NCBI RefSeq assembly: GCF_988243305.1
Contig: NZ_OZ547136.1
DNA: 64,000 bases
Direction: 5' to 3' (one strand)
The notes below the pieces were generated by a model. That model saw only the letters and a program-made list of their open reading frames with translations. It was not told the origin of the DNA and made no database searches. The position numbers and the translations under genes are program-made. How positions within the stretch are numbered: position 1 is the first letter of the stretch; every line of letters starts with the position of its first letter. This document shows positions 1,539 to 2,166 of the stretch, piece by piece.

Positions 1539-1567
1539 TTGACAGCCTGTTTCCCAAAACATAATAT
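1539..1567 (+). promoter_or_regulatory. Sigma70-like promoter (pL-like) for early operon
   Basis: TTGACA (1539-1544), 17 bp spacer, TAATAT (1562-1567). Confidence 0.45.
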
Positions 1568-1620
1568 CGCACCATCAATTATAACTTGATTTGATTCAAT
1601 TTAAAATTGTTGGCGGATAT

Positions 1621-2166
1621 ATGAAGACACTAAAAGCAACTCCAGAAACAACTAATTTTATCAACTGCGGCTGTGTTACGCTTAAGGGCTTAGAACTTGA
1701 TTCCTTTGCATTAAATATTGCAAATTTGCTAAGTGCTGTACGCACATTCCATCTTCTGGATTGTGCTCGCTCAAAGGAACTGGGCATTGAGGTAATGGAA
1801 TTTATCCATGAATATGCTCTATCTGCTGCTTCTCCTGCACAACAAAAACAATCCTTCCCTGAAAGCTGGCTGGTTAACCTTCGCACCCAACGCGAAGCCT
1901 GCGGCTTAACAACCGCCGAACTCGCCAGGCTGCTCGATCTCGATGAAGAAATTATCATCCAGTGGGAGAGCGGAGAGTATGAACCAACTATCAGTATGCT
2001 TATCCCACTGGCAAATATTCTTGGCTGCGATCCGATGTGGCTGTTAACTGGTGAGGTTACTCCTCCGGAGCAACCAAAAAGTGAGGAGCAGCAACACCAT
2101 GACGCATCTCAACAAGTTTGCCCCTTATCTCGCGAAGCTCTTCTGCGGAAGAACCAATACCAATAG
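1621..2166 (+). CDS. HTH (XRE-type) domain protein, first gene after pL-like promoter
   Basis: ORF 1591-2166; internal ATG at 1621; HTH-like segment GLTTAELARLLDLDEEIIIQWESGEYEP. Confidence 0.5.
   Translation: MKTLKATPETTNFINCGCVTLKGLELDSFALNIANLLSAVRTFHLLDCARSKELGIEVMEFIHEYALSAASPAQQKQSFPESWLVNLRTQREACGLTTAELARLLDLDEEIIIQWESGEYEPTISMLIPLANILGCDPMWLLTGEVTPPEQPKSEEQQHHDASQQVCPLSREALLRKNQYQ

Follow-up and report, generated by a model that had tools for sequence, protein, structure and literature searches.

Analysis of a 64,000-nt stretch of contig NZ_OZ547136.1 (assembly GCF_988243305.1; "the window" below denotes this whole stretch) suggests that the first gene of a putative CI-repressed early-left operon in an Escherichia coli prophage encodes a protein in which an N-terminal helical hairpin is joined to a strongly acidic helix-turn-helix (HTH) domain of the XRE superfamily. 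We propose that this hairpin-HTH protein is a dimeric, immediate-early "decoy HTH" that acts by binding another protein, rather than an N-like antiterminator or an operator-binding repressor, and assign this reading a probability of roughly 0.4. The gene lies in the immunity region and early-left arm of the prophage (positions 380-8752 of the window), which shares 99% identity with PhiR49_2, an inducible phage from ECOR13, and is related to phiP27, a phage that carries Shiga toxin 2e (Stx2e). The order of the genes and of the predicted regulatory sites is as follows:

380-652, minus strand: cro-like gene, divergent from cI, with a YdaS/P22_Cro-type HTH (PF15943, E = 1.6e-12; phrog_35).
661-756, no strand assigned: oR-like operator cluster in the cI/cro spacer, with ATCAA-N7-TTGAT-like 17-mers at 661-677, 691-707 and 740-756 and k-mers common to the pL region.
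786-1475, plus strand: gene for the CI-like repressor, 229 amino acids (aa), with an N-terminal XRE HTH (HTH_3, E = 5e-8) and a C-terminal S24 (LexA-like) peptidase domain (Peptidase_S24, E = 4e-17).
1487-1510, plus strand: intrinsic terminator of the cI transcript, a terminator-like hairpin after the cI stop codon (1487-1503; G+C-rich stem of 7 bp, loop of 3) with a T run.
1527-1611, no strand assigned: oL-like operators, ATCAA-N7-TTGAT 17-mers at 1527-1543 (one mismatch, overlapping the -35 element), 1574-1590 (perfect palindrome, at the expected +1) and 1595-1611 (two mismatches).
1539-1567, plus strand: putative pL-type sigma70 promoter with -35 TTGACA (1539-1544), a 17-nt spacer and -10 TAATAT (1562-1567), matching the consensus at 10 of 12 positions.
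1621-2166, plus strand: hairpin-HTH coding sequence (ATG at 1621, TAG ending at 2166), 181 aa, phiP27 L10 family, PHROG 4836.
Downstream: about 15 small early genes, the excisionase gene (7147-7383) and the integrase gene (7439-8752).

The divergent arrangement of cro and cI is the same in all related loci examined, and the order of a cro gene divergent from an S24 repressor gene that is followed by a hairpin-HTH gene is kept even in the distant relative P0139. The homologue of the CI-like repressor is labelled "cI" in the annotation of PhiR49_2.

The initial annotation had placed a near-consensus sigma70 promoter directly after the repressor terminator, and this prediction holds up. The site is the only one of its kind on the plus strand of the 145-nt intergenic region; a 10/12 match is expected by chance in a random 145-mer of the same composition with p of about 0.05 (about 0.26 for a 9/12 match) and, taken alone, is weak, suggestive evidence. 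The call becomes convincing through three further observations, namely the operator palindromes, the conservation of the site and the type-specific motifs that it has in common with the cI/cro spacer. A search of the 64-kb window for ATCAA-N7-TTGAT with up to two mismatches returned only 39 matches, six of which are the oL- and oR-like 17-mers, and the oL-like layout is the same in two related loci (L005 and L055). A promoter-like site with at least 9 of 12 matches is present at the same position and on the same strand in all eight representative relatives, which cover several immunity types. In most of these eight, the pL region and the phage's own cI/cro spacer have type-specific motifs in common, which are 12-14-mers in three types (CTATAGCGATTGA in one type, TTATTGCAATAACTTATTGCA in another and CCAAAGTATCAA in phiP27-like phages) and shorter or degenerate in the remaining types. 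Positions 1539-1567 are thus best described as a putative repressor-controlled pL-type promoter. A minus-strand promoter-like site that also matches at 10 of 12 positions (TTTAAA-16-TATAAT, 1578-1605) lies inside the pL leader, facing back to cI at its 3' end. Its sequence coincides in part with the operator palindromes, and the match may have arisen by chance from the A+T-rich repeats.

The open reading frame under the control of this promoter is a real gene under purifying selection, judging by the matches to PHROG profiles (phrog_4836, E = 2.1e-78, aa 1-153; phrog_4739, E = 2.6e-55, aa 57-181), the hundreds of intact copies of the family and the low ratios of non-synonymous to synonymous substitution rates (omega), which were estimated at 0.03 for the HTH and 0.20 for the hairpin, with 0.02-0.03 in the neighbouring segments. 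The start codon is preceded by a GGnGA Shine-Dalgarno-like sequence. The AlphaFold2 (AF2) model of the protein, with an overall per-residue confidence score (pLDDT) of 62 and a disordered N-terminus, contains three segments:

1687-1827, plus strand: two-helix hairpin (aa 23-69; helices 23-45 and 49-69 in the AF2 model, pLDDT about 78).
1861-2049, plus strand: acidic XRE-fold domain (aa 81-143; five-helix fold in the AF2 model, pLDDT 80-88), with the predicted recognition helix at aa 109-117 (EEIIIQWES).
2059-2166, plus strand: non-conserved, disordered tail (aa 147-181; pLDDT below 50) and stop codon, overlapping the 3' end of the convergent gene L09.

The functional part of the protein is probably aa 1-146 (1621-2058). 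From the letters alone, the initial annotation had described a 180-aa protein with an XRE-type HTH in its C-terminal half and had called for a homology and structure search; the length is 181 aa, and the domain assignment was confirmed by that search, in which aa 87-141 match HTH_3 (PF01381) with 43 bits against a cut-off of 23, the modelled domain has the five-helix lambda-repressor-like fold of the XRE superfamily, and the closest sequence and structure matches to aa 81-146 are P22 C2, the 434 repressor and ImmR, with DicA-type domains also among them. Three features go beyond that description: the N-terminal hairpin domain, the read-through character of the last 35 aa (see below) and the presence of two HTH domains in the usual form of the protein. 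Most relatives are 215-265 aa long and carry two tandem XRE domains, whereas in the window copy the first domain (HTH1) is joined to the last helix of the second (HTH2) at "CDPMWLLTGE" (region 2020-2060). Like phiP27 L10, the window copy looks as if one HTH had been removed by a deletion in frame, running from the "GCDP" end of HTH1 to that of HTH2. One-HTH and two-HTH forms alike are common and intact (P0005, P0047 and P0074 are examples of the latter). In annotations, no member of the family is named beyond "helix-turn-helix protein"; searches of Pfam, NCBIfam and PADLOC give generic HTH matches for this protein and no match for the hairpin or for the neighbouring L08 and L09, and the literature on phiP27, mEp021, HTH antirepressors and non-DNA-binding XRE proteins yielded no functional study of the family.

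The most unusual property of the protein is the charge of its XRE domain. The conserved domain has a net charge of -8 and an isoelectric point (pI) of 4.05 (4.76 for the whole protein), and HTH1 carries -4 to -8 in 10 loci of several immunity types, compared with +2 to +12 for the N-terminal 80 aa of the cognate CI proteins (+5 for the CI-like repressor of the window). Where the recognition helix of P22 C2 reads SNVAISQWER in the alignment, the window protein has DEEIIIQWES. In the 434 repressor, Q28, Q29 and S30 contact bases and K38-R43 form a basic loop; in the register of the 434 match, the base-contacting residues are replaced by E109, E110 and I111, and the basic loop by E119-I124. These positions are invariant or nearly so across relatives and, with an omega of 0.03, the acidic surface is maintained by selection. 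The conserved acidic and hydrophobic face, which is exposed and would normally point to the DNA, looks like a protein-binding site. In addition, the HTH-coding DNA is about 100% identical across unrelated immunity types and remains invariant beside unrelated CI N-terminal domains. Among 5426 complete E. coli genomes, the HTH segment is found in 307 (about 6%), compared with 73 for hairpin type A and 73 for CI type A (at least 90% identity). This invariance across immunity types and genomes implies a conserved partner.

The hairpin is far more variable. A survey of 80 IMG/VR loci and five phages identified at least six mutually unalignable hairpin types, each always found with one repressor type, while the C-terminal part and the downstream genes assort freely with respect to the hairpin. 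In four immunity types, the DNA is unrelated until about 11 nt before the codons for "REACGLTT" and essentially identical for more than 300 nt thereafter; in every type, the mosaic junction lies within about 5 nt of the same point, just ahead of helix 1 of the HTH. Types A and A' offer a finer comparison. Both show the ATCAA-N7-TTGAT operator motif, and their CI proteins are 94% identical, whereas the hairpins are only 51% identical at the amino acid level; the synonymous rate (dS) is 1.5-2.0 and saturated everywhere, and the non-synonymous rate (dN) is 0.036 for cI, 0.051 for HTH1 and 0.385 for the hairpin. At equal dS, the hairpin thus changes about ten times as fast as the segments on either side and is, by these rates, an intrinsically fast-evolving domain between two strongly constrained ones. 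A profile of the hairpin retrieved only 21 matches from 1.84 billion representative proteins; those inspected were standalone proteins of 60-80 aa, the C-terminus of L08 and L08-like proteins, and the N-termini of other HTH proteins. The distant relative P0139 (280 aa), with 38% identity over 50 aligned residues of the hairpin segment, is encoded directly after an HTH+S24 repressor that is divergent from a YdaS-like cro, and is followed by another hairpin protein. Two copies of the hairpin most likely associate as a dimer in the form of a four-helix bundle: an AF2 model of two hairpins tethered by a linker gave a helix pLDDT of 87-95 and a predicted template modelling score of 0.72, with a generic up-and-down four-helix bundle.

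Taken together, these observations are compatible with the following scheme. In the lysogen, CI bound to the ATCAA-N7-TTGAT sites over the -35 element and the transcription start would keep the pL gene silent, as the operator layout suggests. Upon infection, or after self-cleavage of CI, the hairpin-HTH protein would be the first product made from pL and would dimerise through its predicted hairpin. The target of the invariant acidic XRE domain or domains would then be a conserved and probably basic protein, not an operator, and this contact would modulate the early programme; the candidates are DNA-binding proteins encoded in the conserved early-left block of the phage or by the host. We favour a protein-binding over an operator-binding role because the HTH is strongly acidic and is devoid of the usual DNA-contact residues. 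HTH proteins that act in this manner are known: Mor of TP901-1 and phi13 binds the N-terminal domain of CI (PMC11149083), and the Mor structure (PDB 6tri) is among the structure matches of the window protein. Several considerations weigh against the proposal. The fold is that of bona fide operator-binding repressors, and the tandem HTH domains of most relatives are arranged as is typical of DNA-binding proteins. Base contacts can be made by acidic residues of a recognition helix, as by Glu181 of CAP, and charge alone does not exclude DNA binding. The charge controls taken from sequence data comprise the CI and Cro proteins of these phages, whereas the comparison with the 434 and SinR domains uses sequences that we take to be correct. 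Finally, the tethered-dimer model is weak evidence for the dimer, given that the linker forces proximity and the bundle is favoured by construction, and it was judged without the predicted aligned error.

Among the alternatives, a classical DNA-binding second regulator (Cro-, CII- or DicA-like) has to be considered, in which a hairpin dimer would place two or four XRE domains on a conserved operator in the early-left block or the host chromosome and control delayed-early genes, xis/int or L09 for instance, by repression or activation. The canonical XRE fold, with P22 C2, the 434 repressor and ImmR as its nearest matches, would serve such a regulator well; tandem HTH domains with a dimerisation domain are a common DNA-binding design, and the extreme conservation of the HTH would also suit a conserved DNA site. 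Annotation points the same way, the best NCBIfam match being to the DicA subfamily and the PHROG label for the family being "CII-like regulator", but the DicA model (NF007257) scores 41.5 bits against a cut-off of 101, and the TTGC-N6-TTGC repeat, which CII-type activators target at the -35 regions of pRE/pI-type promoters, is absent from both strands of positions 1-9000. For the "CII-like" label of phrog_4836, we found no basis beyond the annotation. The net charge of -8, Glu/Glu/Ile at the base-contact positions and the acidic counterpart of the basic loop of 434 all argue against operator binding, and autoregulation of pL is unlikely because the adjacent promoter region is immunity-specific whereas the HTH is invariant. 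A regulator of this kind is a serious competitor, although we consider it somewhat less likely than the decoy model. We regard as improbable an immunity-specific antirepressor or co-regulator of the Mor type, whose hairpin would single out the CI or Cro of the same phage while its acidic HTH covered the surface with which these bind DNA, in a double-negative switch at the protein level. The gene is the first of a repressed lytic promoter, like mor in TP901-1 (PMC11149083), and an acidic surface would suit basic CI N-terminal domains. The hairpin type corresponds one to one with the CI type (in the 80 loci, and with 73 genomes each in E. coli), and in every type the mosaic junction falls exactly at the hairpin/HTH boundary. 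Segments that lie about 150 bp from each other and have no homology common to the types would be linked in any case, however, and the comparison of A with A', where CI and operator motif are conserved while the hairpin diverges (dN 0.385 versus 0.036), indicates that the hairpin does not track CI. Furthermore, the HTH is invariant across unrelated CI N-terminal domains, an S24 self-cleavage domain is already present in the repressor, and the phage encodes a Cro. Of the two roles offered in the initial annotation, a second regulator or an antirepressor, the first is accordingly made less likely in its classical operator-binding form by the acidic HTH and the lost contact residues, and the second is disfavoured, as directed against the phage's own CI, by the contrast between hairpin and CI divergence.

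Two further possibilities concern host takeover and antitermination. An acidic early protein could neutralise a host nuclease or nucleoid protein, following the logic of Ocr, Ral or Gam, with a hairpin that diversifies in an arms race. The pI of 4.76 (4.99 for the paralogue L08), the roughly tenfold acceleration of the hairpin at equal dS and the fact that the same early operons carry a small family of paralogues with the hairpin alone would all fit, as would the position of the gene, from which it should be the first expressed on infection. Nevertheless, an omega of 0.2 for the hairpin is compatible with simple relaxed constraint, PADLOC models match the protein only as a generic HTH, and nothing ties the family to any defence system; an anti-defence function is improbable on this evidence. 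The initial annotation had also raised the prospect of a different antitermination device, and a non-canonical factor that replaces lambda N in the early-left operon would account for the occupation of the N position and for an operon in which no N-like gene was seen. It was right that the first product is not a small arginine-rich N-like antiterminator: the protein has the XRE fold and contains seven arginines in 181 aa, none of them in the first 40 and at most three in any 20-aa window. The suggested search for nut-like elements came back negative, with no boxA-like sequence between 1500 and 4700 and a leader of about 50 nt whose folding (z = -1.2) is not significant, and the plus-strand terminator-like sites in 1540-8800 are weak and close to the background frequency. 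Moreover, mEp021, a characterised coliphage without lambda N, still uses an arginine-rich N-like protein and nut sites (PMC11893012). Antitermination by the hairpin-HTH protein is, in our estimate, very improbable.

Immediately downstream of the hairpin-HTH gene lie a convergent gene and a paralogue of the hairpin:

2057-2299, minus strand: L09 (phrog_6104, E = 1.4e-49), 80 aa; about 110 nt of it lie over the 3' end of the HTH gene, and its start abuts that of L08.
2298-2663, plus strand: L08 (phrog_5451), 121 aa, whose C-terminal ~65 aa are a hairpin-domain paralogue (phrog_4587 and phrog_5451 match both proteins; alignment; profile search).

Close relatives contain too few variable sites to judge the coding status of L09, and the question was decided by the diverged relative L089. 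In comparison with L089, the L09 frame shows 14, 9 and 25 differences at the three codon positions, 18 synonymous and 18 non-synonymous codon differences, and 76% amino acid identity, the pattern of a real gene under purifying selection. The corresponding numbers for the tail of the HTH protein are 9, 14 and 8, with 3 synonymous and 19 non-synonymous codon differences. L09 is thus the selected reading frame, and the last 35 aa of the HTH protein are incidental read-through. The window copy ends with TAG (2164-2166), whereas nearly all close relatives have TGG (Trp182) followed by TGA, so that the window protein is one codon shorter. L09 lacks a Prokaryotic Genome Annotation Pipeline (PGAP) annotation in RefSeq genomes. 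A perfect minus-strand TATAAT (about 2349-2344), about 45 nt ahead of the start of L09 and within the coding sequence of L08, marks a candidate L09 promoter; a G+C-rich hairpin flagged as terminator-like (2371-2354, minus strand) immediately precedes the TATAAT. Transcription of L09 into the pL operon could be regulatory.

Every locus inspected has hairpin-only paralogues a short way downstream of the HTH gene (for instance, 4404-4604 in L005 and 4844-5257 in L086). They take several forms, namely L08 of 121 aa (often annotated as 68 aa), proteins of 66 aa, and one of 137 aa whose hairpin is of another type. No co-variation was seen between these paralogues and the hairpin of the HTH protein beside them: one and the same L08 is found after types A, B, C and G. 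A SinI-like matched antagonist, which predicts such co-variation, was considered and rejected for this reason. A more specific version of the proposal casts the protein as a new component of the lysis-lysogeny decision or of host takeover, a "decoy" XRE that has lost DNA binding, titrates a DNA-binding protein instead and is dimerised by an exchangeable, quickly diversifying hairpin. In this version, accompanying hairpin-only paralogues could cross-poison dimers that belong to co-resident or competing prophages; we offer it as a rather doubtful extension.

Two other products of the early-left operon are candidate partners or further regulators: a 62-aa protein (2858-3046, plus strand; phrog_340) similar to annotated antirepressors at their C-termini, and a MarR-like winged-helix protein of 82 aa (3644-3892, plus strand; phrog_1687). 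On the other side of the switch, similarity to PhiR49_2 begins only at about 392, such that the pR side of the prophage is either a different mosaic module or truncated. A 97-aa open reading frame of unknown function (16-340, plus strand; phrog_4753) is convergent to cro and ends in a strong terminator (316-340); PhiR49_2 has Roi/Rha-type genes in its place. From about 8800 onwards, the window consists of E. coli chromosome and contains the MicL small RNA (15600-15907, minus strand), C0465 (29166-29243) and a Gly-Cys-Leu tRNA cluster (47457-47759). The related prophage PPyecE_EH1910 is named after the yecE site, which the window prophage may share.

The family is present in 25 sequenced coliphages, 19 of which are named as Stx1a-, Stx2a- or Stx2d-converting; phiP27, with Stx2e, is a further Stx phage among them. 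The gene holds the position of lambda N, first in the repressed early-left operon, and a modulating effect of its product on lytic commitment, excision or host takeover, if there is one, would carry over to prophage induction and thereby to Shiga toxin release in Stx phages that are not of the lambda type. To our knowledge, early regulation in such phages has not been studied. Should the more specific decoy version be correct, many E. coli prophages, Stx1a-, Stx2a-, Stx2d- and Stx2e-converting phages among them, would have the protein at the core of their switch, and it could influence how toxin phages are induced. The combination of a hypervariable hairpin with an invariant HTH is also a clean natural case of a mosaic junction at a domain boundary. 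Behind an ordinary-looking annotation lies an unusual HTH, probably one that does not bind DNA, at a key regulatory position, and the XRE fold may here have been re-purposed for protein binding.

The hairpin-HTH protein belongs to the XRE superfamily by sequence and fold, and to PHROG 4836/4739. It does not qualify as DicA-like, as CII-like or as a member of the N-like class, which comprises lambda N, P22 gp24, Nun and mEp021 Gp17. Lambda N, P22 gp24 and mEp021 Gp17 share its place and timing, each being encoded by the first gene after a CI-repressed leftward promoter, upstream of xis/int. These proteins are arginine-rich, disordered RNA-binding peptides, whereas the window protein is an XRE HTH without an arginine-rich motif, nut sites or convincing terminators to override. 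An arginine-rich N-like protein is used even by mEp021, the one characterised "non-lambdoid" coliphage that depends on Nus factors (PMC11893012). Lambda CII is likewise a small early HTH protein of a temperate phage; the window protein differs from it in being encoded in the pL rather than the pR operon, in its architecture and in the lack of the CII-type repeat in the region searched. The best sequence and structure matches of aa 81-146 are P22 C2, 434 cI and DicA-type domains, which are basic and carry Gln, Ser or Asn at the base contacts, in contrast to the net charge of -8 and the Glu/Glu/Ile of the window protein; unlike these repressors, it has no S24 or other C-terminal oligomerisation domain, and its DicA score is below the cut-off.

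The resemblance to SinR/SinI (and to SlrR/SlrA) of Bacillus lies in domain logic, with a hairpin and hairpin-only paralogues present here as well. The HTH of SinR is basic and binds DNA; in a module of this type a helical hairpin comes after the HTH, and the antagonist consists of the same hairpin. In the window protein, by contrast, the order is reversed, with the hairpin N-terminal; no sequence similarity between the hairpins was detected, and the paralogues do not co-vary. Mor of TP901-1 and phi13 is likewise an XRE-fold product of the first gene of a CI-repressed lytic promoter (PMC11149083). Mor is a single domain of about 70 aa at the Cro position in phages of Gram-positive bacteria, whereas the hairpin-HTH protein is highly acidic, has an added hairpin and often two HTH domains, coexists with a separate Cro, and varies in a part that does not co-vary with CI.

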